Assembly: GCA_903912365.1 (NCBI GenBank)
Contig: CAIWGV010000046.1
Location: 10,707-74,706, forward strand
Length of the DNA: 64,000 nucleotides
Direction of reading: 5' to 3'
Origin: an uncultured Alphaproteobacteria bacterium
GTDB lineage: Bacteria > Pseudomonadota > Alphaproteobacteria > UBA7879 > UBA5542
Shown piece after piece: positions 6,316-62,216 of the stretch; within the stretch, counting starts at the first letter, position 1, and every line of letters begins with the position of its first letter. Both the position numbers and the translations under genes were made by a program. The notes under the pieces were generated by a model. The model saw only the letters and a program-made list of their open reading frames with translations. It had not been told where the DNA came from and searched no databases.

Positions 6316-6530
6316 GACTCCGGGCCTTACGGGGGCTCATTTTATCCTTGACTTTTTTGGAAAAATTCGATACATTGGGCTTCAACTTATTCCCGTCGTC
6401 CTTGGTGGGAACTTTATATAAAAATTTATAAAAACCAGCCAAACATCATCCAGAGGAGGGGCGACGAGGCCCGATTTCCTTAAAAAAATCTAACGTCGGG
6501 ATCCCTCTTTTTTACAAGAAGGTGTCGCAT

Positions 6531-7238
6531 ATGAATATCTCAAAATACACCTGGGCCCTTCACGCACGGCCCTCCCAAAAAATCCCTCCTGGCTCCTGGA
6601 CCACTTGGCTCATTATGGCCGGTCGTGGCTTTGGCAAAACCCGCACGGGCGCTGAAACCATCCGGCAGTGGGTAGAGCGGAGACATTGCAAAAGAATCGC
6701 CCTCATTGCGGAGACAGAACTTGAGGCCCATTCCGTCATGATCGCTGGTCCTAGCGGACTTTTAAGTGTCTGCCCGCCTCATCGTCGCCCCACATACATT
6801 GATCGTCGGAAAGAGCTCCTCTGGCCCTCCGGTGCCCGAGCCACCATTTACACAGCCCGTAACTACGAAAAACTCCGAGGGCCTCAGTTTGATGGGGCCT
6901 GGATCGATGAGTTGGCAAAATTCCCTCATGCCCAAGAAACCTGGGACCAACTCATGTTTGGCCTACGCTTGGGCCCTCACCCTCGTGTCATCATCACCAC
7001 AACGCCTCGCCCTATTCCTCTCCTCAAAACCCTAGTACACCATGCGGACACTTACCTGACTCAGGGAACTACTTATGAAAACGAAGCAAACCTTTCTCCC
7101 CGCTTTCTGGATCAGATTTTAAAAACCTATGAAGGAACGCCTTTGGGCCAACAAGAAATTCATGCCCAGCTCTTAATGAATCAGGAAGGCGCCTACTGGA
7201 CCCGATCCCTTATTCTCTATGGTCTACCAACCCCATGA
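6531..7238 (+). CDS. Terminase large subunit-like protein, ATPase domain only (GTA/phage type), C-terminally truncated relic
   Basis: Walker A GRGFGKTRTGAE and Walker B-like AWIDE in the arrangement typical of alphaproteobacterial GTA/phage TerL N-domains. It is only ~235 aa and the nuclease domain is absent. No other phage or GTA structural genes are nearby. Start placed at the ATG at 6531 (an SD-like AGAAGG lies upstream), rather than the GTG at 6522. Confidence 0.65.
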   Translation: MNISKYTWALHARPSQKIPPGSWTTWLIMAGRGFGKTRTGAETIRQWVERRHCKRIALIAETELEAHSVMIAGPSGLLSVCPPHRRPTYIDRRKELLWPSGARATIYTARNYEKLRGPQFDGAWIDELAKFPHAQETWDQLMFGLRLGPHPRVIITTTPRPIPLLKTLVHHADTYLTQGTTYENEANLSPRFLDQILKTYEGTPLGQQEIHAQLLMNQEGAYWTRSLILYGLPTP

Positions 7239-7312
7239 TGTGGTCCTCTTGCTTTTTATAAGGACTAGATTATAATCAGGGTCAGAGATTTTAACAAAAA
7301 GGAGACTTTCAT

Positions 7313-8053
7313 ATGTCAGATTCTCGTCATAAAATAATCGATCAATACACAGCCTCGTCCACCAGCGTGGATCAAGGACTTCGCTCTTATATGCTGAAAG
7401 TATATGCTTACATGTTCGTAGGGCTCAGCCTCACGGGTTCTTTGGCTTTCTTATCAACGCAGGTTCCGGCCCTTCAAAGCCTTTTGTTCACGCAAAATGC
7501 GGCAGGACAGTGGGGACCCAGTGGCATCACCTGGCTTTTGTCCTTTGTGCAGATTGGGCTCGTGCTCTTTTTATCCTTCCGCATCCAAAGCTTGAAGACT
7601 GCCACAGCCCAGATGATTTTCTGGGCCTATTCCGCCTTGATGGGGCTCAGCCTGTCTTCCATATTTCTCTTGTATACGGGCGCCAGCACAGCACGGGTAT
7701 TTTTAATTACCTCTGCCACCTTCGGAACTATGAGCTTGTACGGGTATGTCACAAAGCGAGATCTTTCCGGTCTTGGGTCCTTCCTCTTCATGGCCCTCAT
7801 TGGGATGATCTTGGCCTCTCTGGTGAATATATTCTTCCAAAGTTCTGTTACGGAGTTTGTCATTTCCGTCATAGGGGTTCTGGTATTCACAGGCCTCACA
7901 GCCTATGACACCCAACGGGTGAAGGAAATTTACTTGGAGCAAGATTCCGCTGAAGTAAAATCAAAGAAGGCTATCATGGGGGCCCTTGCTCTCTACCTGG
8001 ACTTCATCAATCTCTTCATCCTGTTGATGCGCTTCTTAGGCGATCGTAGGTAG
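7313..8053 (+). CDS. Bax inhibitor-1/YccA (TMBIM) family membrane protein
   Basis: 246 aa with 7 predicted TM helices and the conserved N-terminal YMLKVYAYM motif of BI-1/YccA proteins. Confidence 0.82.
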   Translation: MSDSRHKIIDQYTASSTSVDQGLRSYMLKVYAYMFVGLSLTGSLAFLSTQVPALQSLLFTQNAAGQWGPSGITWLLSFVQIGLVLFLSFRIQSLKTATAQMIFWAYSALMGLSLSSIFLLYTGASTARVFLITSATFGTMSLYGYVTKRDLSGLGSFLFMALIGMILASLVNIFFQSSVTEFVISVIGVLVFTGLTAYDTQRVKEIYLEQDSAEVKSKKAIMGALALYLDFINLFILLMRFLGDRR

Positions 8054-8154: not shown

Positions 8155-9192
8155 TCATACAACTTCTTCCTTAATATTTTTAGAAAGCTCCACTTCAATT
8201 TCTTCAATGGTTGGCAAAGAAGATTTAATATCCTCCGGCAATATCTCGTGAAGCTTATACTCCGCAAGCCCTATGGGTTTGGTCATATCTCGCAGAGTAT
8301 ACTCAGCCAAAACATTATTTTTGGACCTACAAAGGATAAGGCCTATGGATGGCCGATCATCCTCATGCCTTAAAGTATCGTCAACGGCTGAGAGATAGAA
8401 GTTCATTTTGCCCGCATACTCTGGTTTGAAACTCCGATCTTTTAGCTCAATCACAACAAAGCAGCGGAGCTTTAGATGATAGAATAACAGGTCTATATAA
8501 AAATCCTGATCTCCCACATCCAAATGATATTGCCTCCCCACAAAGGCAAAACCATCTCCCAGTTCAAGCAAAAACTTTTCAACATGATTGACTAGAGCTT
8601 TCTCAACTTCCCGTTCATGAGCCTCCTTCCCTACACTTAAAAAGTCAAAAATATAGGGGTCTTTTAGAGTCGAGAGTGCTAAATCCGATTGAGGAGAAGG
8701 GAGTTTTTCTTGAAAATTTGTAACAGCTTGCCCCTCTCTCTTATGCAAAGCCGTTTCAATTTGCAGAACCAGAACGCTTCGAGACCATCCATATTCAATG
8801 ACTTTTTTCATGTAAAATATCTGATCTTGTTTGCCCTTGATACCATCCAAAATTGTTGCGATATGGAACCACGGCATTTGTGCAGCAACCTGCTGCACAA
8901 ATTCAGAATCAGGGTATTCTTCTGCAAATTTTCGCATGTATTTAAGGTTTCTCGTGCTAAATCCCTTCATCTCTGGAAATTCTGATCGCAAATCATGGCT
9001 AAGCTGGTCAATAACTTTTGCACCCCAACCATGGATCTTTTGAGACTTTAAGATCATGCTTCCAATGTGATGATAAAGCAGGATAAGCTCTCGGTTAACA
9101 GAAAGAGCCGCCTTGTATCTGGACGCCACAACGCGCGTTTTAAGAGAATCCAGAAATTCTATGTAGTCTTTGTTTGCAAGATTAGATGACAT
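8155..9192 (-). CDS. YhcG-like PDDEXK nuclease domain protein (DUF1016)
   Basis: 345 aa. The N-terminal DUF1016-type helical region and C-terminal ...DLLFYHLKLRCFVVIELK... are consistent with a PD-(D/E)xK restriction-endonuclease-like fold of the YhcG family. Confidence 0.7.
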   Translation of the reverse strand: MSSNLANKDYIEFLDSLKTRVVASRYKAALSVNRELILLYHHIGSMILKSQKIHGWGAKVIDQLSHDLRSEFPEMKGFSTRNLKYMRKFAEEYPDSEFVQQVAAQMPWFHIATILDGIKGKQDQIFYMKKVIEYGWSRSVLVLQIETALHKREGQAVTNFQEKLPSPQSDLALSTLKDPYIFDFLSVGKEAHEREVEKALVNHVEKFLLELGDGFAFVGRQYHLDVGDQDFYIDLLFYHLKLRCFVVIELKDRSFKPEYAGKMNFYLSAVDDTLRHEDDRPSIGLILCRSKNNVLAEYTLRDMTKPIGLAEYKLHEILPEDIKSSLPTIEEIEVELSKNIKEEVV

Positions 9193-19900: not shown

Positions 19901-20291
19901 CTATCAAATGGTTCAAAAGAACTACTTCCCAGCATTTAACTTTGGAAACCCCTGGTTTATAGACCAGTGGCTTTCAACGCCCTACTTAGGAAATGTTTCT
20001 TCTTACATTCCCTATTTATCATCAGATGCCTTGTATCTTTTTGGGGGGTTGTCAAACATCTTACAATCCATCGAAACCCTTCTTCACGATCATAGAACTC
20101 TAATTCCTTTGCAGGATCCCCTGAAGAGCGTCACCGTAGAAATGCCTAACTCCCAAGAAGATGGTATCAACTTATTTGGTCAGGACCCCACACCCCTTCA
20201 CCCTGAAATAACCCCCTCTCTAAAAGAGGAAGAAGAAGGAGAAAATCTATTCGGAATACCCCCCTTAGAGAGTATGGTGCTTGGCGGGTGA
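13914..20291 (+). CDS. Giant two-partner-secretion exoprotein (TpsA/FhaB-like) with N-terminal TPS (haemagglutination activity) domain and a long Gly/Ser/Thr/Asn-rich beta-helical repeat region
   Basis: TPS-domain signatures LTAIDWDSFSVG...VNSVVG...QVYILNPNGMVF (NPNGI motif), followed by ~1700 aa of degenerate ~20-25-aa repeats (YMGGFVG / GGLVGQTTG / SISNS...). The reading frame is open from 13710 and encodes a signal-peptide-like RGISFFRKVFPGIQFFLGGVLFSIFAQA|HEA upstream of the first ATG (13914). The true N-terminus is therefore probably upstream, with a non-ATG or slippage-dependent start. No autotransporter beta-domain is found at the C-terminus. Confidence 0.8.
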   Translation: MDITPHQSLTAIDWDSFSVGSKAAVSFHHGGSDYITVNSVVGSKLSEVAGQINVTGGGQVYILNPNGMVFHDGALVDSAVIVGTSTLDRTAFYEKGEVLLRASENAAPIIVNGTLTIKNAGLFRVVAPHFLNNGHIKGQLHVAAAEEVRVDLGDSRLTFTLNGKLKDAFLHTTKGSSVEGKTVTMTVGTVEEVLNETIRIDGDMRAVGLSEEGGRIILKGGDTGKTVVSGTLDASGKMDSDASPSAHVGGLVSVTGHTVEAEPTAHLKADGTTGGKIHFGVDEDFQRSSTDSVLKNPSVKATHVHIHSGAEMAAKATTGKGGSVIAIAKDTTTFQGKETLSEPSIFVTSQKGPGGFAEISGNKLRVEGLVDARSLETDEHGHVLFDPGSILISTAGGATMSGSALSTALIGANVTLQTTVGFSPGADLITIDDEVAWGNGTTLSLIGKDMLFTGNAQVQLIVGFLKIRTAYSTSIPQGAITLQPGYKIDSTDNPVLLFSSNGMDNITNSAGVHLTFGYTNYMNIYGANTVTNGPDTYYGLDLLINGTLPANGNYALMTDMTLVSPFSFPLSDPFTGILTATSLGVNPSPYTLTLPGGPQNLAVLGGNVYWGSLCPQLSGASIDSINFAIQGGSLTLNGPTGAGPITGGTYIGLLAGSATNSTITNVGVSSDSISYTNNIRSPNLYMGGLVGQATSTTPATVSISNITNSLNLYFTDRYVPPTSPPLDLYYIGGLVGSTSGSIFNSSSSGSLTYTQNPPTEGISSNLSAYVGGLVGQTTGSTINNSYYSGALQVSVPTDYGHINNLYVGGIAAYANSTGGLTISASNPTLAPVISISNSGGVVSSNGGVRGGVYMGGFVGASAQSITISNSVIPHGSNNILSLTNTGFVGGASMGGFLGQAFSTSTISNCSNAGTILLTNNNNFNNTGPSFGFISSTFLGGLLGAATGAVILTESHNSGNVTLANTNSATSGASFDSGDINYGGVIGAALSGLTSSLTYNSGALTFSNGGSIGFSGSSSIHMGGFAGALSGPNTITGSTYNSGNLTLSNGTNSNNGNSNNGNVTGGINLGGFVGSSTGAIDGTLGANSNTGTVAFTNGYNGGGTGTIGTYLYVGGFAGAMSANANLTGATSSSPVTVVDQNNSGNNSPPFCVGGLVGNTSSSISNSYATGSVSYTENSINTSALYIAGLVAQTTGAAITSSYYNQALSVTISSAHQLPSLLMGGLVAYNATPLSISSSYTSAGSSLSLTNSGTIAIAAVGGLVGSPGSTLVLSTTTKNAGNMTVTNTGTFGGLFYGGIIGVTKVAVTSTGTTNTGNLTLLNGTVNGAGSIGTVEMGGFVGGSSSAIDGTLGANSSSGTVAFTNGHTGGAGLPYTGTIVNNLSIGGFAGDMSANALIWATSSSPVTVIDANHVGAAPFCIAGLVGTTGAGASISNSSYNGALSATINPNNTLGVLNMGGLVAYSQYSPSISSSYVSAGSSLSLTNSGTLGGGANVGGLFGYLNSFNSSGNTYNAGTMTITNTGTFSSTLNYGGVIGSASQTTTSTGTCTNTGNLTLLNGTSDGPGTITGDVSMGGFFGLSAGSSGTVSSSGVLTFTNGADTGPTAILSGNLNVGGFAGFLNDNAPLSGQSSTGVTVTNNSNITTTKAWSIAGLVGNALNNIINSSASGTVSYVENAINDSTFAIGGLLGQNTGPATISNSSYNGALSATITNNGNSTNSFFLGGIAAVASANLTISGSSLGSNSSLLVTNNGTMYELGIGGISGKSEANIPLTISGSSVGTNASLGFINTGRILSNLRNFFFGGVVAVNGGTATLSKSYNQGNLFLNNSGTLNCTVYYGGIIASPSNGQTINQTFNTGNLSVTNSGTGTLTKPLYIGGFAGKEPGFLTSPFTAANNYTTGSININNSGNLTDVYMGGFMGSVSDPDSTISTSYTRTSLSLTNTGTIAGNTLVGSFAGSNSGTIATSYALIQPSAVAGFTSPLAPIGAGTMSGVTLLQPYQMVQKNYFPAFNFGNPWFIDQWLSTPYLGNVSSYIPYLSSDALYLFGGLSNILQSIETLLHDHRTLIPLQDPLKSVTVEMPNSQEDGINLFGQDPTPLHPEITPSLKEEEEGENLFGIPPLESMVLGG

Positions 20292-21407
20292 GGCTGCCTT
20301 CGGTAAAAAGATATAATACTGTCCTTTAGACTTCATCTTGCCTGCCTGTTCCATGGCTTCTTTTCCAAATCCCCAGAAAAAATCTCCCCGCACGGCTCCT
20401 CGAATGGCGCCCCCCGTGTCTTGCGCCACCATCAGGTGACGGTGATTAAAATGATTATCTGGGTGATAGCCATCAAACCAGATGGGGGCCCCCATGGGGA
20501 AAATTCTTTTGTCTACAGCCATACTCCGTTTGGGAGTCACGGGGATACCCATACACCCGATGGGGCCGTCGCCCGGAATTTCTCGGAAAAATACATAGGA
20601 TGGGTTTTGATGCATAAGCTCTCGGGCTCTCTTTGGATTATCCTTCATCCATTTCCGAATAGACTGCATGGAAACATCCTTCAGGTCCATATACCCCCCT
20701 TCCGCCAGCTTACGACCAATGGGGATAAAAGGATGTCCATTGACACCCGCATACCCTACCCGCATGACGCCTCCTTCTTTCAAATTCACGCGCCCAGATC
20801 CTTGGATGTGCAGGAAAAAGGCTTCAACAGGATCATCCACCCAAACAAGCTCTAGCCCTTGCCCTTCCAAGGCGCCCTCATCTATACTAGCGCGGTCATA
20901 ATAGGGGATAAGCCGTCCCCAGCTGAACCGTCCCCATTTTTTATCCGCCTCTGACATCACTAAGTCCGAGGGTTTTCTATAAAGGGGATAGGCATATTTT
21001 TCGCTGCGGACCCGGGATCCATGCAGCTCACTTTCATAGTACCCCGTGAAAAGCCCCTCATGATTTCCGTTATCACTAGCTTTGTAAGGCGTAAAATAGG
21101 TTTCAAAAAAATCTCGAACTTCCTGGGCTGATTTGGGGTGAAGCTCTAAGGCTTTACGACAGGCTGGATGCCAATCTCCTGCATTTGTACCAAGACCCAC
21201 GGGTCTATTGGCGGGCATTTTTAGCAGAACGGGGCAAGATTTACAGAAAGCTCGAAAGCCATCTATAATATCGTGATCCTGCTGCCAATCCGGAAGGGCA
21301 TAAAAAGAGGAGGGAGTTATTTTTAAGAGGGGCACCTGAGGGCTGCGGCTACAAGCTCCCAAGAGCAAGAGACCAACGGTGACTAGAAAAAATCTATGGG
21401 GCCTCAT
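20265..21407 (-). CDS. mltA: Membrane-bound lytic murein transglycosylase A
   Basis: Lipoprotein signal (LLLGACS), MltA domain and C-terminal 3D domain (DTGGAIRGAVRGDFFWGFG). Its 3' end overlaps the TpsA 3' end by 27 bp, convergently. Confidence 0.85.
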   Translation of the reverse strand: MRPHRFFLVTVGLLLLGACSRSPQVPLLKITPSSFYALPDWQQDHDIIDGFRAFCKSCPVLLKMPANRPVGLGTNAGDWHPACRKALELHPKSAQEVRDFFETYFTPYKASDNGNHEGLFTGYYESELHGSRVRSEKYAYPLYRKPSDLVMSEADKKWGRFSWGRLIPYYDRASIDEGALEGQGLELVWVDDPVEAFFLHIQGSGRVNLKEGGVMRVGYAGVNGHPFIPIGRKLAEGGYMDLKDVSMQSIRKWMKDNPKRARELMHQNPSYVFFREIPGDGPIGCMGIPVTPKRSMAVDKRIFPMGAPIWFDGYHPDNHFNHRHLMVAQDTGGAIRGAVRGDFFWGFGKEAMEQAGKMKSKGQYYIFLPKAASPAKHHTL

Positions 21408-22091: not shown

Positions 22092-22592
22092 ATGGGGGTC
22101 AGTTCAGTTCAATTGCATCGGATTCTAAAAGATGCCGGAGTTAGGTCTGAATACTTTGAAGAAGTTAGAACGCAATCTCTACATAAATTTTATGAAAGAT
22201 CCTTTCACCAAGAAATAAATACCCACAGCAAAAATCTTTACGCTACTGAACATTACTTTCAGGCAGTCTTTGAAGCATGTAAGGCATATGAACAAGGAGT
22301 GATCAGAAAAGCAAAGTTGGAGGGACATGGAGTGCGTTTAATGGAAGAAGCCTGGGATAAAAAAGGACCTCTAGATCTAAAGAAGAGTAAAAGCAGAGCA
22401 GATGCTAACATACAAGAGGGGATCAAATCTCTCTCCATTGGATTAATGCAGGCTATAAGAAATCCGGGAGGTCATAAACTTTCTGAAGAATGGCCTATTT
22501 CTCAAGAAGACTGCTTAAACATTTTAAGCTTTTTAACATTTTTGTTTCAAAAATTAGATGAAGCAAGACACGTTGAAAAAGTAGCTCCATAG
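22092..22592 (+). CDS. HEPN-domain protein, Abi_C/TIGR02391-like (putative abortive-infection/RNase toxin-type domain), solo
   Basis: 166 aa. The C-terminal AIRNPGGHKLSEE carries the HEPN R-x4-H motif in the context typical of Abi_C family proteins (ALRNxxAH). No MNT/antitoxin partner ORF is nearby. Sits between a core gene and the 3' end of tRNA-Arg. Confidence 0.5.
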   Translation: MGVSSVQLHRILKDAGVRSEYFEEVRTQSLHKFYERSFHQEINTHSKNLYATEHYFQAVFEACKAYEQGVIRKAKLEGHGVRLMEEAWDKKGPLDLKKSKSRADANIQEGIKSLSIGLMQAIRNPGGHKLSEEWPISQEDCLNILSFLTFLFQKLDEARHVEKVAP

Positions 22593-22728: not shown

Positions 22729-22805
22729 TGGTGCGCCCGAGAGGACTCGAACCTCTAACCTCTTGATTCGTAGTCAAGTGCTCTATCCAATTGAGCTACG
22801 GGCGC
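22729..22805 (-). tRNA. tRNA-Arg (anticodon ACG)
   Basis: Minus-strand sequence GCGCCCGTAGCTCAATTGGATAGAGCACTTGACTACGAATCAAGAGGTTAGAGGTTCGAGTCCTCTCGGGCGCACCA. 7-bp acceptor stem, anticodon loop CUACGAA, T-loop GGTTCGAGTCC, encoded CCA. Confidence 0.9.
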
Positions 22806-51163: not shown

Positions 51164-51240
51164 GGGCCTGTAGTTCAGTTGGTTAGAACTCACCGCTCAT
51201 AACGGTGCTGTCGTAGGTTCGAGTCCTACCGGGCCCACCA
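51164..51240 (+). tRNA. tRNA with CAU anticodon (elongator tRNA-Met, or tRNA-Ile2 if C34 is lysidinylated)
   Basis: GGGCCTGTAGTTCAGTTGGTTAGAACTCACCGCTCATAACGGTGCTGTCGTAGGTTCGAGTCCTACCGGGCCCACCA. The G1-C72 pair and lack of three G-C pairs in the anticodon stem argue against initiator identity. CCA is encoded. Confidence 0.85.
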
Positions 51241-51264: not shown

Positions 51265-51861
51265 ATGATGACATTTAAATTACCCCCTCTCCCCTATGAC
51301 CTCAGCGCTCTAGAGCCACACATTTCAGAGAAGACTTTAAGCTTTCATTACGGCAAGCACCATCACGGATATGTAAACAAACTTAATGAGCTCTTAGTCG
51401 ACTCTCCTCTGGCTTCTAAGGATTTGGAAACCGTTATTCTGGAAACCTCGGGGGATGCGCAAAAGGCAGCCATCTTTAACAATGCCGCTCAAGTGTGGAA
51501 CCACACCTTCTATTGGAACAGTATGAAGCCTGCGGGCGGTGGTGAACCCGGTAAAGATCTTTTGAAACGCATTGAAAAAGACTTTGGCGACTTTGATGGG
51601 TTTTGTACAAAATTCAAAGAAGCCGCCATCACCCAGTTTGGCAGTGGATGGGCTTGGCTTGTGGAAGATCAAGGTCATTTAAAAATTCTTAAAACAGGTA
51701 ATGCGGAAACTCCTTTGACGCACAAGGGTGTTACCCCTCTTCTCACCTGCGATGTGTGGGAACATGCCTACTATTTGGACTATCAAAACCGCCGGCCCGA
51801 TTACTTGGATATTTTCCTGAAAAATCTTGCCAACTGGAACTTCGCGGAACAGAATCTGTAA
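51265..51861 (+). CDS. sodB: Superoxide dismutase (Fe/Mn family)
   Basis: Metal ligand contexts (HHGKHH, ...WEHAYY...) and [18 protein letters not shown] signature. 198 aa. Confidence 0.95.
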
Positions 51862-53022
51862 GTGACTCCCGCCTCCCCCATCGTCATCCTTGGCGGAGGG
51901 TTTATTGGATCCCTCATGGCGATCGCCCTGGGAAGGATAGGCATTTCTACAAAAATTCTGGAACGCACGTCGCGCTCAACCAAAACAGGTGGGGGACGTG
52001 CCATTTCCATCACTTATGCTTCTCGACAATTCTTGGAATCTCTGGGGCTATGGCAAGGGCTGAGCCTCCAGGCTCAGCCTCTCTTAGAAATACATACGTC
52101 GAATGGGGAAGGGCAAACTCTCATTTTAGATCAAAAAGATAGTGGCGGAGAACCCTTCGGTCACATGATTGAGGAGCATCTCTTGCGGGAGGTCTTAGCA
52201 GAAGCCGTTCAAAAATGTCCCTTAATAGACTGGCAAGAAGCTCTATCCATTTCCCAACTGAACCTCCACCAAGATTTTGTGGAAATCACCTTGTCTGATA
52301 AGACAACTCACCAAACGTCCCTTCTCATTGGGGCCGATGGTCGCCAGTCTGCCATACGGGAGTTTCTACAGTTCCCCAAATTTGAATGGTCTTACAATCA
52401 GTGGGGAATCGTGTGCACCTACGCCCATTCCAATTCTCACCATGGTAGAGCCTATGAAAAATTCCTTTCCACAGGACCTTTTGCCATCCTCCCTTTAACA
52501 GGAAATAGATCCGCTATAGTGTGGAGTGCAGAAAATTCCCTGGCTGAGAAATTAAGAGGACTTTCCGAAGGTGAATTCCATAAGGAGGTAGCCTCTCATA
52601 TGGACGGCTTTCAAAACATTCAGCCCCTCACGGAACGGCAGATGCATCCTTTAGGAGCTCAAATAGTACCAAAATTTACAAGACCTCGGATTGCTTTGGT
52701 AGGAGACGCAGCCCATGTCATTCATCCTCTTGCAGGCCAGGGGTTGAATCTAGGTATTCAAGATGTAAACGCCTTAACTGAAACCCTACAAAAGGGAAAA
52801 TCTTTGGGCCTTGATCTGGGAAACACTGGTCTTTTAGGGCAATATGAGAGCGCTCGAAGCTTTGATCACCTAAAGTTTCTTACCATCACGGATGGGCTCA
52901 ACCGCCTTTTTTCCAATGAGAATAGAACATTAGATACGTTCCGAACCTTCGGCCTTAAATGGGTCCAGGAATCTCCAGGGTTACGGGAATTTTTTTCACA
53001 TCACGGAATGGGGATAGTATAA
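51862..53022 (+). CDS. ubiH: FAD-dependent monooxygenase of the UbiH/UbiF/Coq6 family (ubiquinone biosynthesis hydroxylase)
   Basis: GTG start directly after the sodB stop. FAD-binding GxGxxG (VILGGGFIGSLMAIAL). C-terminal DAAHVIHPLAGQGLNLGIQD motif. Confidence 0.82.
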   Translation: MTPASPIVILGGGFIGSLMAIALGRIGISTKILERTSRSTKTGGGRAISITYASRQFLESLGLWQGLSLQAQPLLEIHTSNGEGQTLILDQKDSGGEPFGHMIEEHLLREVLAEAVQKCPLIDWQEALSISQLNLHQDFVEITLSDKTTHQTSLLIGADGRQSAIREFLQFPKFEWSYNQWGIVCTYAHSNSHHGRAYEKFLSTGPFAILPLTGNRSAIVWSAENSLAEKLRGLSEGEFHKEVASHMDGFQNIQPLTERQMHPLGAQIVPKFTRPRIALVGDAAHVIHPLAGQGLNLGIQDVNALTETLQKGKSLGLDLGNTGLLGQYESARSFDHLKFLTITDGLNRLFSNENRTLDTFRTFGLKWVQESPGLREFFSHHGMGIV

Positions 53023-55154: not shown

Positions 55155-56325
55155 TTTTTCCTTTGAGTTTACGGAGTTCCCCATGGCCCACCGGGCCCGC
55201 TTGGGATCTCTAAAGACACCCCATGGCGCCATCCAGACCCCTGCCTTTATTTTCTGTGCCACGAAAGGTGCCATGAAGGCCGTGAATATGGACCAGGTAA
55301 AGGATGCAGGAACCCAAATCATTCTCTCCAACACCTATCACCTCATGATCCAACCCACGGCGGATCTTGTGGAAAAAATGGGAGGACTCCACAAATTTTG
55401 TGGGTGGGATGGCCCCATGTTGACCGACTCTGGGGGATTTCAGATTTTCAGTCTGGGTCATGGGTCCGTGGCAGAAGAAATAAAAGGCAAACGCCAAGGG
55501 GGCCGTGCCAATTCCCTTCTAAAGATCACGGAAGAAGGGGCTAAGTTCCGATCCTATACGGATGGCAGTTATCATCTCCTCACCCCAGAAAAATCCATGC
55601 AGATTCAAAAAAAACTAGGGCCCGATCTGGTGGTGGTTTTGGACGAATGTACCCCCTTTCATGTGGACAAAAAATATACCCAAAAATCCATGCAGATGAG
55701 TCACCGATGGGCGCTCCGTAGCCTTGCAGAATTTGATCGCGGCAATGATGGGAAGCAAGCTCTTTATGGCATCATTCAAGGAGGGGTGTACCCTGACCTC
55801 CGCCAAGAAAGCGTAGATTTTGTGAATTCCCAAGATTTCTTTGGCCATGCCATTGGAGGATCCCTAGGGGCCGACAAAGATCAAATGGCGGAAGTAATCT
55901 CCCTCACAGCACCGCGCCTAGACCGTGCCCGCCCCATTCATCTTTTAGGCATCGGGGGCATCTCAGATATTTTCATGGGCGTACGCCAAGGCATTGATAC
56001 CTTCGACTGTGTCCACCCCACCCGCATGGCACGCCATGGAGGCGCCCTTGTGAAAGGAGCCCCCAAAGAATCTCTCCAGATCCGAAATGCCCAGTATCGG
56101 GAAGACCCGACGCCCCTCGAAGCTGATTGTGGATGCTTCACCTGCCAACGGTATTCCAAAGCTTATCTCCATCATCTCTTTAAAGCCAAAGAACTTCTGG
56201 GCATGCAGCTCATCACCCTCCACAATATATATTTCATGAATCAGCTCATGACTGAAATCCGAGAGGGTCTCCGAACAAACACCCTTGATGTTGTAGAAAC
56301 CAAATGGCAAAGTTGTAAGAGATGA
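55132..56325 (+). CDS. tgt: Queuine tRNA-ribosyltransferase
   Basis: N-terminus FSFEFTEFPMAHRARLGSLKTPHGAIQTPAFIF (cf. KFEL...ARRGRL...TPCFMPV). Zn site CxCxxC...H (CGCFTCQRYSKAYLHHL). Catalytic Asp contexts present. Confidence 0.9.
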   Translation: MTSPRYPNFSFEFTEFPMAHRARLGSLKTPHGAIQTPAFIFCATKGAMKAVNMDQVKDAGTQIILSNTYHLMIQPTADLVEKMGGLHKFCGWDGPMLTDSGGFQIFSLGHGSVAEEIKGKRQGGRANSLLKITEEGAKFRSYTDGSYHLLTPEKSMQIQKKLGPDLVVVLDECTPFHVDKKYTQKSMQMSHRWALRSLAEFDRGNDGKQALYGIIQGGVYPDLRQESVDFVNSQDFFGHAIGGSLGADKDQMAEVISLTAPRLDRARPIHLLGIGGISDIFMGVRQGIDTFDCVHPTRMARHGGALVKGAPKESLQIRNAQYREDPTPLEADCGCFTCQRYSKAYLHHLFKAKELLGMQLITLHNIYFMNQLMTEIREGLRTNTLDVVETKWQSCKR

Positions 56326-58256
56326 ACATGCAAAATCCTCTTTGGTCCCCTTCTTCTGAACGCAAAGACAAAACTTTGTTAAAAAAATTCATGGGGACTG
56401 TTCATAAGAACTCCTATGAAGATCTCCACGCTTGGTCCATTGAAAACTTGGAAGATTTTTGGTCCCAAGTTTGGGATTTCTGTGGGGTGATCGGAGACAA
56501 AAAAGAACCTTATCTCACAAACAAATCCGAGATGGAAAGGGCCACCTTTTTCCCCCACACCCATCTAAATTACGCCGAAAATCTTTTGCGACGCCGGGAT
56601 GAAGAACCCGCCCTCATTTTCTGGGGGGAAGACCAGGTAAAACGGTCTCTCACGTTCAAACAGCTCTATGACAAAGTTTCCCGCTTGGTCCAAGCCATGA
56701 AAACCTTTGGCATTCAAAGGGGTGACCGGGTGGCCGGCTATGTCCCTAACACTCCTGAGGCCATCATTGCCATGCTCGCCACGGCCACCTTGGGCGGTGT
56801 CTGGTCTTCCTGCTCTCCCGATTTTGGTGTTACGGGTATTCTCGATCGCTTTGGCCAGATCGAACCCAAGCTTTTGTTTGCCGCCGATTGTTACGTTTAT
56901 AAAGGCAAGATCCATTCTTGCTTGGAAAAATTGGCAGAGATCCAGAGAGAGCTTCCCTCCCTCCAACAAACCATTGTGTTTTCCTATGAGGGCAATCCCT
57001 CTGTTGACGCCGACCTCCCCAAGACAACCTCTTGGAGCGATTTCCTAAAACCTTTCCCGGCGGATGAGATTGAGTTCCAACGATCCCCCTTCAACACCCC
57101 CCTCTTCATCATGTTTTCTTCCGGAACAACGGGGGTTCCCAAATGCATCGTCCATGGGGCCGGCGGCACGCTGCTACAGCATATGAAAGAGCACCAGCTT
57201 CAGTCTAACCTGAAGCCCCGGGATCGCTTGTTTTACTTCACCACCTGTGGCTGGATGATGTGGAATTGGCAAGTGTCCGGTCTTGCGTCGGGTCTCACCC
57301 TTCTCCTCTATGATGGGTCGCCCTTTGCCCCCACTCCTTCCATCCTTTTCGATTATGCAGAGCAGGAAAAAATGACTCTATTTGGCATCTCCGCCAAATA
57401 CATTGATTCCCTGCGAAAAGAAAATATTTCTCCCCTCACAACCCATGACCTCTCCTCCCTCCAGGTCCTGGCCTCCACGGGGTCGCCTCTGGTATCGGAA
57501 AGCTTTGATTACATTTATGACCACATTAAAAAAGACCTTTGTGTGGCCTCTATCTCCGGCGGCACGGATATTATCTCTTGTTTCGTTTTAGGCAATCCCA
57601 TGGCCCCCGTCTGGCGGGGCGAGATCCAGGCTCCGGGCTTGGGCATGGCCGTGGAGATCTTTGATGATAAAGGCCATTCCATTCAAGGTGAAAAGGGAGA
57701 GCTCGTCTGCACAAAACCTTTCCCCTCCATGCCTCTGGGTTTTTGGAATGATCCACAGGGCACCAAATATCATGAGGCCTACTTCTCCCGCTTTCCCAAC
57801 GTCTGGTGCCACGGTGACTTTGCAGAACGAACGGAGCATGGAGGATTCATCATCTATGGCCGGTCCGATGCTGTCCTAAATCCCGGCGGTGTTCGCATTG
57901 GCACGGCGGAGATCTACCGTCAGGTGGAAAAAATCTATGAAGTCCTCGAGAGTATCGCCATTGGCCAAGACTACAACAATGATGTGCGGATTGTTTTGTT
58001 CGTGAAATTGAAAGACGGAGTTTCCCTAGATGAGTCTCTCAAAACTAAAATCAAACACCAGATCCGCACTCACACCACGCCCCGTCATGTGCCTGAGGTA
58101 ATTGTCCAGGTCGCTGATATTCCTCGCACCAAAAACGGCAAACTCGTTGAGCTCGCGGTGCGCGAAGTGGTCCATGGCCGCCCCGTCCATAACAAAGAGG
58201 CCCTGGCCAACCCGGAAGCGTTGGCGTATTTTAAGAATTTAGAAGAGCTAAAATAA
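56322..58256 (+). CDS. aacS: Acetoacetyl-CoA synthetase (AMP-forming acetoacetate-CoA ligase)
   Basis: N-terminal block ...FMGTVHKNSYEDLHAWSIENLEDFWSQVWDFCGV... is typical of acetoacetyl-CoA synthetases. AMP-binding motifs (FSSGTTGVPKCIVH; ...YGRSDAVLNPGGVRIG...). 644 aa. Confidence 0.82.
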   Translation: MNMQNPLWSPSSERKDKTLLKKFMGTVHKNSYEDLHAWSIENLEDFWSQVWDFCGVIGDKKEPYLTNKSEMERATFFPHTHLNYAENLLRRRDEEPALIFWGEDQVKRSLTFKQLYDKVSRLVQAMKTFGIQRGDRVAGYVPNTPEAIIAMLATATLGGVWSSCSPDFGVTGILDRFGQIEPKLLFAADCYVYKGKIHSCLEKLAEIQRELPSLQQTIVFSYEGNPSVDADLPKTTSWSDFLKPFPADEIEFQRSPFNTPLFIMFSSGTTGVPKCIVHGAGGTLLQHMKEHQLQSNLKPRDRLFYFTTCGWMMWNWQVSGLASGLTLLLYDGSPFAPTPSILFDYAEQEKMTLFGISAKYIDSLRKENISPLTTHDLSSLQVLASTGSPLVSESFDYIYDHIKKDLCVASISGGTDIISCFVLGNPMAPVWRGEIQAPGLGMAVEIFDDKGHSIQGEKGELVCTKPFPSMPLGFWNDPQGTKYHEAYFSRFPNVWCHGDFAERTEHGGFIIYGRSDAVLNPGGVRIGTAEIYRQVEKIYEVLESIAIGQDYNNDVRIVLFVKLKDGVSLDESLKTKIKHQIRTHTTPRHVPEVIVQVADIPRTKNGKLVELAVREVVHGRPVHNKEALANPEALAYFKNLEELK

Positions 58257-60926: not shown

Positions 60927-62216
60927 CTACGCCCACAAGGCTGAAATCGGAATAGCATACATATTTTTCTTATAGGGAATTATCTTATCTCCTCCATACA
61001 GAATGATACCTCGAAAAAAAGCATCCGGCATTTCTTGTTCGAAATGCTCTAACCCCTTAAAAGAAGAAGGATTGACACTCGTACTAGATTTAATTTCAAT
61101 TGCAATGATTCTAGAGTCATATCCTTCCAGGATAATATCTACTTCCTGACCAGACTGACTCCGATAATGGTACAAACGTGCTCTGATCTTAGACCACGTG
61201 AACAACTTCATCAGCTCTATAATAACAAAATTTTCTATAAGATGGCCTAAATGATGATGCTGTCGAAGCAGCGCTCCCGTGTCTTGACCCCTCAAATGAC
61301 AGAGCAGCCCAGTATCATTTAGATATATTTTAGGCGATTTTATCGCTCTCTTAGAAAGATTTTTTGTCCAGGCGGGCAAGAGTTCAACAATATAAATCTT
61401 CTCTAATAAAGTGAGGTACCGCCTCAGGGTTGTTGTTGATAAAGATAGGCTGCGTGAAATTTCAGCCGTATTCAAAAGGCTCCCTACACGAGCGGCCAAA
61501 ACATTCAAAAAATTTGGGATCTCTGTTAAGCCCTCAATATTTGAAAGGTCTCGAATATCTTTTTCTATCAACGTCGTAATATAAGAATGAAACCATTCAT
61601 CCCGTCTCTTGTCACTCTGTTTTAGGATGGAGGAAGGGTATCCTCCTATGGTTAGGGCATTTAACAAGTCGGCAGACGCATTTGGGCTTTCGATTCTTTT
61701 AAAGTCCGGTAACTTCTGTTCAAAAATCGAATCTATAAAACATTGCGAAGCTTCATGAATCTCTGCTTGTGCCAAAGGCCATAGAGTATGCACCTCCATG
61801 CGTCCTGCTAAAGAGTCCGCCATTCGTGGCAACGCGAGAACATTGGCAGAGCCTGTTAAAATAAATTGGCCCGGCTTTCTATTTTGATCCACCATAACTT
61901 TAATGGGTAAAAAGATTTCAGGGAATCTTTGCACTTCATCAATAATAAGTGGCCTCTCTGCTTCAGATAGAAATCGCGCAGGGTCATTTTTAATGAGACT
62001 GAGAAGAGAAGGATCATCCAACGTCCAATAGGCATGCGTCTCGGAGAATAACTCTTTGACTAAGGTGCTCTTGCCAGATTGTCGAGCTCCATTCAAGAGC
62101 ACAACGGGCGTATCCTGAGCCGCTTCCATTATTTTGGATGATAAATATCTTTTAAACATGGGCCTAGTATAATCATGTTTTGGGAATTTTGTCAATCTAT
62201 TGTGGTTGATATTCAA
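60927..62216 (-). CDS. AAA+ ATPase with DUF4143 (COG1373 family)
   Basis: Walker A GARQSGKST, Walker B LIIDEVQ, and the C-terminal DUF4143-like region. Start is either TTG at 62216 or the internal ATG (MFKRYL, ~62159). Confidence 0.75.
   Translation of the reverse strand: MNINHNRLTKFPKHDYTRPMFKRYLSSKIMEAAQDTPVVLLNGARQSGKSTLVKELFSETHAYWTLDDPSLLSLIKNDPARFLSEAERPLIIDEVQRFPEIFLPIKVMVDQNRKPGQFILTGSANVLALPRMADSLAGRMEVHTLWPLAQAEIHEASQCFIDSIFEQKLPDFKRIESPNASADLLNALTIGGYPSSILKQSDKRRDEWFHSYITTLIEKDIRDLSNIEGLTEIPNFLNVLAARVGSLLNTAEISRSLSLSTTTLRRYLTLLEKIYIVELLPAWTKNLSKRAIKSPKIYLNDTGLLCHLRGQDTGALLRQHHHLGHLIENFVIIELMKLFTWSKIRARLYHYRSQSGQEVDIILEGYDSRIIAIEIKSSTSVNPSSFKGLEHFEQEMPDAFFRGIILYGGDKIIPYKKNMYAIPISALWA

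Follow-up and report, generated by a model that had tools for sequence, protein, structure and literature searches.

A stand-alone large-terminase ATPase gene in an uncultured alphaproteobacterium as a candidate subunit of a naturally split packaging enzyme

How does a packaging motor of the phage or gene transfer agent (GTA) type come to be encoded by a gene that stops right behind its ATPase domain and stands alone among housekeeping genes? The question is raised by an open reading frame (ORF) at positions 6531–7238 on the plus strand of a 64-kb stretch of contig CAIWGV010000046.1 from an uncultured alphaproteobacterium; this whole stretch is called the window below. Large terminases (TerLs) are, by the textbook, motor and nuclease fused in one chain, and the original prediction, made from the sequence of the window, had taken the ORF as a TerL ATPase domain without its nuclease domain, explained either as a decaying GTA or prophage remnant or as a domesticated packaging-ATPase fragment. 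We lean, with somewhat better than even confidence, to a different answer, namely that the product of the ORF is the ATPase (motor) subunit of a large terminase of GTA/phage type which is naturally split and works as a two-piece packaging enzyme. Since the nuclease half is a separate and equally conserved gene in relatives, the ORF is better called half of a lineage-wide split terminase than an orphan fragment.

The sequence comparisons indicate that a TerL gene for a protein of ~410 aa was divided in the linker between ATPase and nuclease in the ancestor of a Holosporales-related alphaproteobacterial clade, and that the split gave two independently translated genes, both of which have stayed under purifying selection. 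Subsequently, the two halves have been driven further and further apart by insertions and rearrangements. In the genome of the window only the ATPase half is visible, the ancestral neighbours are lost, and the gene now stands between a glycosyltransferase gene and a BI-1 gene; the window copy is one highly dispersed member of this split-terminase variant.

The ATPase half and its short homologues

The gene comprises 235 codons plus the stop (ATG at 6531, TGA at 7236–7238). A Shine-Dalgarno (SD)-like AAGAAGG is located at 6516–6522, 8 nt ahead of the ATG, an in-frame GTG at 6522 is without such a sequence, and the same 235-aa product is found in database gene calls (P0001). The product matches Pfam Terminase_6N (PF03237), the TerL packaging ATPase domain of ASCE P-loop type, with E=2.6e-26 (93.1 bits against a cut-off of 22 bits) at profile positions 1–213 of 215 and thus over the complete domain, and it also matches PHROG_2, 'terminase large subunit' (E=4e-16). 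As read from the sequence, the Walker A motif or P-loop AGRGFGKT, with Arg32 in the loop, occupies residues 30–37 (6618–6641, plus strand), Walker B with the catalytic Glu, GAWIDE, residues 122–127 (6894–6911, plus strand), and the coupling (C) motif TTT residues 156–158 (6996–7004, plus strand). Across 34 homologues there is no variation at A30 to R38, D126, T156, T158 and P159, and E127 is kept by at least 90% of them; altogether 47 alignment columns are invariant across the 34 sequences, the catalytic motifs being invariant or at least 90% conserved. When aligned with T4 gp17, to which the sequence identity is low (E=0.008), all three motifs fall on their gp17 counterparts, GAWIDE on the Walker B region and TTT on 'TTTP'. 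The AlphaFold (AF2) model made from the 34 homologues has a predicted local distance difference test score (pLDDT) of 89.4, and its top PDB matches in Foldseek are the TerL ATPase domains of P74-26, T4 gp17, D6E and Sf6 (E ~1e-9, template modelling score 0.61–0.68). The best matches are thus terminases and not other P-loop proteins, and in this part, a TerL ATPase domain of GTA/phage type with Walker A, Walker B and coupling motifs intact, the original prediction is borne out.

The C-terminal tail (residues 211–235; 7161–7235, plus strand) consists, by pLDDT and alignments, of the last conserved motif, WTRSLILYG, and a 4-aa remnant of the interdomain linker; pLDDT is only 54–71 across the final ~25 residues, which are disordered in the model. 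The stop stands 4 aa past this last motif of the ATPase domain, at the place where fused TerLs run on into linker and nuclease domain and where all split forms end. No match to Terminase_6C (PF17289), the nuclease domain of a canonical single-chain terminase, was found in the same chain, and the ATPase half has no match in NCBIfam or PADLOC. The chain therefore ends after ~235 aa without a nuclease domain, as had been proposed, and 74 bp later the BI-1 gene begins.

A search of 5.8 billion proteins gave 5,223 homologues. The top 41 (55–100% identical) are all 189–338 aa long and without a Pfam nuclease-domain match, and several of the short homologues are located on contigs of 0.1–0.6 Mb. When projected onto a 412-aa fused reference, 75 of the 120 best homologues end at positions 229–257, most of them at 229–246, which is the ATPase/nuclease junction. 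In a neighbour-joining tree of the ATPase domain the window protein lies inside a 40-tip clade of exclusively short forms, which it shares with ~40 stand-alone ATPase-only homologues of 55–73% identity; in 100 bootstrap replicates the clade of only short forms around it comprises a median of 29 tips, and there is a second all-short clade of about 20 tips. With clustering at 50%, the 150 best of 2,945 strong TerL matches contain essentially only two representatives of the split forms, which means that the split form is rare and lineage-restricted. The nearest named genome with the ATPase gene is a metagenome-assembled genome of an 'uncultured Holosporaceae bacterium' (73% identical). The TopA of the window organism shares no more than 67% identity with any other sequence, and the closest named genera are Rhodospirillales at 57–60%.

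Is the gene then decaying? The least saturated pairs have dN of 0.13–0.19 against dS of 1.5–2.1, giving an omega of ~0.08–0.09 with dS saturated, and omega is the same in the sub-lineage of the window as in lineages with a known partner; the metagenome copies of the gene, being 100% identical, offer zero differences and are uninformative for dN/dS. A functionless pseudogene fragment of a GTA or prophage terminase would agree with the single domain, with the lack of any partner in view and with the unrelated genes around it, but the ORF of 235 codons is intact and has its SD and ATG, dozens of lineages, down to 55% identity, stop at the same position, the invariant columns include the catalytic motifs, and there is no nuclease-coding debris past the stop. 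The idea of a decaying remnant is thus contradicted by the linker-exact stop, the clade of ~40 sequences, the conserved motifs and the low omega, and we consider it very improbable. The ATPase half is, as its substitution pattern indicates, under purifying selection, and the pseudogene reading is untenable.

The nuclease half as a separate gene in relatives

The relatives have an ORF of ~175 aa which contains Terminase_6C only and lies on the same strand as the ATPase half. The distance between the N (ATPase) and C (nuclease) halves differs from locus to locus in a graded series. The halves are 321 nt apart, the C half having its own SD and ATG, in the groundwater 'Alphaproteobacteria bacterium RIFCSPHIGHO2_01_FULL_41_14' (L099/L100), 529 nt apart in L023, separated by an 85-aa ORF in L109, 2.5 kb apart with two unrelated genes between them in L005, and 5.2 kb apart with three unrelated genes between them in L008. 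In L011 the C half is outside the locus of ~20 kb, and linkage is inferred from the fact that both halves (P0022 and P0146) list a longest contig of 165,308 bp. In the window no nuclease half is present in the 64 kb or in a further 9.4 kb. The upstream synteny infA-yacG-ubiH-sodB is common to L099, L005 and L008, which suggests that these are orthologous loci and that one locus is being pulled apart. In the alignments, the N halves end and the C halves begin inside the 13-aa linker of the fused TerLs, from which no residue is missing, and the lengths of N tail and C leader sum to the linker length. Among the 120 best nuclease matches, 66 are at most 195 aa long, and the stand-alone nuclease halves keep the D...E...D catalytic triad. 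Moreover, the two halves diverge in parallel, the N/C identities between pairs of genomes being 74/76, 80/80, 71/69 and 61/66%. The earlier alternative of a domesticated packaging-ATPase fragment thus comes nearer than that of a decaying remnant, but it is incomplete because the relatives carry the nuclease domain as a second conserved gene.

Several details of these loci deserve mention in their own right. The nuclease half of L023 (11213–11740), a marine or lake relative, is an open frame without ATG, GTG or TTG ahead of the first catalytic Asp, and it has either a non-canonical start or a recent disruption. The 85-aa ORF of L109 (10777–11034), which belongs to the second split clade, has a start that overlaps the stop of the N half and is without a Pfam match on record or a PHROG match; it could be an adaptor or a mere insertion. 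A part of the 321-nt spacer of L099 (9693–9783) is found again in inverted orientation, with 75% identity, just behind the ATPase half of L010 (L010 1912–2001), another 47 nt recur elsewhere in L099 (6437–6483), and this small dispersed repeat may have been involved when the genes were split or moved. A candidate for a small terminase upstream of the ATPase half found no support; the 60–62-aa ORFs of L099 and L008 have signal-peptide-like N-termini and have no counterpart in the window.

The two halves could still be joined again, or the split could be only apparent, through an assembly break, a group I or II intron, a split intein, or a programmed frameshift or bypass. TerL genes elsewhere carry inteins and introns, and many TerL representatives of 600–1,200 aa (e.g. 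P0385, P0404, P0440 and P0479) match the ATPase profile in two separate stretches, which suggests that TerLs of other lineages carry large insertions, probably inteins, inside the ATPase domain. At the junctions of the split forms, however, N tails of ~4–20 aa and C leaders of ~3–20 aa are without intein blocks and too short for inteins, Rfam detects an intron neither in the window locus nor in the 321-nt L099 spacer, and the C half starts from its own SD and ATG, so that rejoining by intron, intein or frameshift is ruled out. In addition, the halves are kilobases apart across unrelated, separately transcribed genes, or unlinked; in L005 and L008 the genes that lie between them are for secreted or outer-membrane proteins and have signals of their own. 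The ORF and both its flanks read the same, base for base, in four independent metagenome contigs (100% identity), which excludes truncation by mis-assembly, and a full-length terminase at the locus was found in none of the independent assemblies. We therefore regard a rejoined or merely apparent split as extremely improbable. A coding sequence of a TerL homologue interrupted by unrelated genes is also known from the herpesvirus terminase pUL15, whose two exons flank other genes. These exons are spliced into one mRNA for one polypeptide, whereas nothing points to rejoining in the split terminase clade.

Capsid genes, origin of the family and surroundings of the gene

If the gene is half of a terminase, are there heads to be filled? 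In L023 the N half is followed by the C half, a 265-aa ORF and genes for a portal, an S78 protease, an HK97-type capsid, a gp6-like connector and a head-completion protein; no tail genes are recognisable in L023, and a PHROG search of the unknown ORFs of L023 and L109 for tail genes and an adaptor came back empty. L011 has a portal gene too, which is separated from the N half by 9 kb occupied by housekeeping genes. A head or head-tail cluster led by the terminase, as for RcGTA g2, is thus present in L023, partly present in L011 and absent from the window. GTA gene sets that comprise only the head, with a terminase gene outside the cluster, have been described in Holosporaceae symbionts, where purifying selection on these genes and their transcription are reported (George et al. 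2022, PMC9254644), and the layouts of L023 and L011 match this pattern. RcGTA g2 and the Holosporaceae-Rickettsiales 'singlet' GTA terminases of that paper (PMC9254644) resemble the split family in belonging to the Terminase_6N/6C TerL family and in residing on alphaproteobacterial chromosomes, and the latter also in being encoded away from the head cluster, in being under purifying selection and in the head-only modules (portal, S78 protease, HK97 capsid, connector) of relatives. They differ in that the paper describes them as one gene and does not mention a split terminase, whereas here there are two genes which are adjacent, separated by unrelated genes, or unlinked.

The split family might instead come from the head module of a siphophage, unrelated to GTAs, and so be what is left of a cryptic prophage. 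Among annotated phage proteins, the closest are the TerLs of the Brevundimonas phages vB_BpoS-Polewnik and vB_BpoS-Strzyga, 55% identical to the window protein over the ATPase domain; each is a single 545-aa TerL encoded in a 62-kb phage genome with the portal gene directly after it, and in this it differs from the split form. L023, moreover, shows no tail or baseplate genes of the kind that are a hallmark of GTAs. We nevertheless consider a prophage origin improbable, because the chromosomal neighbourhoods, with the infA-yacG-ubiH-sodB synteny, are vertically conserved across genomes of 60–80% protein identity, because integrase, tail and lysis genes were not detected at the L005, L008 and L099 loci, and because the pattern is that of the published Holosporaceae GTA head clusters (PMC9254644). 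This alternative bears on origin alone, and the split-subunit mechanism would fit with it as well. The GTA label of the family is provisional.

As to the surroundings, Pfam scans of all ORFs of at least 150 aa show that the window is an ordinary alphaproteobacterial chromosome segment, including dnaN, asnB, topA, dprA, xseA, metG, holB, tmk, obg, dnaG, rpoD, sodB, tgt and truA, with a few effector-like or defence-like genes besides. The setting among housekeeping genes and the absence of GTA genes had both been noted in the original prediction, and both stand: portal, protease, capsid, connector and head-completion genes were not found in the 64 kb by tblastn with the proteins of relatives. 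A nuclease domain was likewise found in no frame of the 64 kb by tblastn with 22 full-length TerLs and a stand-alone nuclease half, and at E up to 100 the search for nuclease remnants gave chance matches only, for example a recurrent 18-aa match at 21194–21247 antisense to mltA. A metagenome contig extends the window leftward by 9.4 kb (recF, gyrB, PBP1, tdk and others), and this extension contains no nuclease half or head gene.

The gene directly upstream of the ATPase half encodes a GT4 glycosyltransferase. The intergenic region between them (6316–6530, plus strand) contains candidate expression signals, weak and from consensus scans only, which are a terminator-like hairpin of the glycosyltransferase gene (6318–6338, plus strand) and a promoter-like TTGACT-17-TACATT (6348–6376, plus strand). 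The 74-bp spacer downstream (7239–7312, plus strand) has neither a nuclease-coding remnant nor a terminator-like site, so that co-transcription with the Bax1-I/BI-1 gene (7313–8053; PF01027, E=3e-61) is possible. A conserved operon with BI-1 was considered and rejected, since the downstream gene differs in every relative and the 242-aa neighbour in L005 is outer-membrane-protein-like and not BI-1. In the window, sodB and a ubiH-like gene (51265–53022), which directly flank the ATPase half in L099, L005 and L008, stand beside tRNA-Met (51164–51240), 44 kb away from the ATPase half, and an AMP-binding ligase (acyl-CoA synthetase) gene, which directly flanks the ATPase half in L011, is at 56322–58256, ~50 kb off. 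These distances of 44–50 kb show that the ATPase gene was relocated by rearrangement and orphaned.

Among the remaining genes of the window, a YhcG/DUF1016 PDDEXK nuclease gene (8155–9192, minus strand) matches the PADLOC candidate defence system PDC-S02 (E=3e-152). The closest relative, L010, has a YhcG homologue of 33% identity (L010 121–1158) directly upstream of its ATPase half, so that in two genomes the terminase half has a mobile or defence gene of this kind as its neighbour. An AAA_14/DUF4143 ATPase gene (60927–62216, minus strand) matches the PADLOC candidate system PDC-S01 (E=4e-158). The product of 22092–22592 (plus strand), a Hypoth_Ymh-domain protein, resembles PD-Lambda-3_B and HEPN-type defence components, and its gene adjoins tRNA-Arg (22729–22805), a neighbour that may mark a small island. 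Genes of host-interaction type encode a 2,125-aa GLUG-motif protein (13914–20291, plus strand), a Fic protein (30951–32117, minus strand) and an S8 peptidase with a eukaryote-type IQ calmodulin-binding motif (32996–34480, minus strand), in keeping with a symbiotic or intracellular way of life. Furthermore, between the rumA-like and outer-membrane-protein genes, two copies of a 78-nt direct repeat (10684–10761 and 10831–10908; 88% identical) are flanked by a 27-nt inverted repeat (10681–10707 and 10931–10957).

Coupling of the two halves and its meaning

How would a terminase in two pieces work? The 235-aa protein would still be an ATP-binding and ATP-hydrolysing ring motor, seated on a capsid and portal complex of GTA-like, head-only type, the cutting of DNA would be supplied in trans by a separate nuclease subunit of ~175 aa encoded elsewhere in the genome, and the two polypeptides would associate non-covalently via the surface that the domains share in fused TerLs. 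The nearest experimental parallel is the splitting of T4 gp17 in vitro at the hinge. As summarised in PMC3012670, the nuclease domain is modelled to move relative to the ATPase domain via a hinge, thereby driving DNA translocation, and gp17 cut at the linker is reported to have kept its ATPase and nuclease activities and lost DNA translocation. The cut was made at the same flexible linker between the ATPase and the RNase-H-like nuclease as in the split family; it differs in being artificial and in abolishing translocation, whereas the split here is natural and old, with both halves apparently under selection. A working two-piece motor is accordingly not a given, and in view of the T4 precedent either the family tolerates non-covalent coupling or the halves now serve separate roles. 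A packaging ATPase that does not itself cut DNA is also found in motors of the phi29 type, where gp16 works with pRNA on a protein-primed genome. This gp16 is reported to keep a vestigial C-terminal domain of nuclease fold in the same chain (PMC7672431), whereas the window protein is without any C-terminal domain. The related phi28 gp11 motor is a weaker match to the window protein (E ~1e-4) than the cutting TerLs (E ~1e-9).

That motor and headful nuclease still fill GTA-like heads as separate polypeptides in the Holosporales-like clade is a tentative proposal to which we give a little less than an even chance, and we are equally reserved about its corollary that such working halves would be encoded up to tens of kilobases apart or unlinked. 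Several observations, besides the T4 result, weigh against the split-terminase answer for the window ORF. The nuclease half, portal and capsid of this organism were not found within ~16 kb upstream or ~57 kb downstream, the candidate nuclease halves P0130, P0136, P0131 and P0132 come from samples other than that of P0001, and the closest relatives L010, L012 and L016 show no partner within 3–10 kb. GTA particles were not observed in Holosporaceae symbionts (PMC9254644). Only 28% of the bootstrap replicates recover the 40-tip clade exactly, and dS is saturated in all inter-genome comparisons. As for the type of the terminase, the Brevundimonas phage TerLs are as close to the window protein as the fused alphaproteobacterial chromosomal homologues (50–59% identical), which means that 'GTA-type' is not exclusive, and a portal related to that of L011, used as the query, is directly downstream in only 6 of 40 fused metagenomic relatives (L014–L094, loci with at least 1.5 kb downstream); many full-length relatives may be singlets too, or may use a different portal family.

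A rival explanation is that the ATPase has left packaging altogether. As an exapted stand-alone enzyme it would have a cellular job unrelated to capsid filling, for example a DNA- or nucleoid-directed one, and would need no nuclease partner or capsid, and the nuclease half may have been lost in the genome of the window. The gene is fully detached from phage or GTA genes and from its ancestral neighbours, its closest relatives show no partner nearby, selection on it equals in strength that in lineages whose partner is known, and the separated T4 domains, in the work cited above, keep enzymatic activity and not translocation. On the other hand, the wider clade, where enough contig is available, always retains the nuclease half, catalytically intact and co-diverging, the neighbours are not conserved (BI-1 in the window, YhcG in L010, an outer-membrane protein in L005), which leaves no new operon partner, and no PADLOC or NCBIfam match hints at a new system. 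Exaptation is thus a serious but rather unlikely explanation, and we keep to the motor subunit of a split terminase as the preferred one.

Our literature searches turned up no TerL with its two domains encoded by separate genes, and annotation pipelines label such ORFs only as 'terminase large subunit domain-containing protein'. If true, a two-piece terminase would mean that DNA can be translocated without the TerL domains being covalently joined, against the result of splitting T4 gp17, and could be a natural counter-example that favours models in which the ATPase ring alone translocates DNA. Alternatively, the two activities would have been re-used separately once packaging was lost. A lineage in which both halves are separate, catalytically intact and apparently co-evolving is informative either way, and it bears on the role of head-only GTA gene sets in obligate symbionts. 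For annotators it is also a caution that ATPase-only 'terminase fragments' in these genomes are conserved genes and not pseudogenes.

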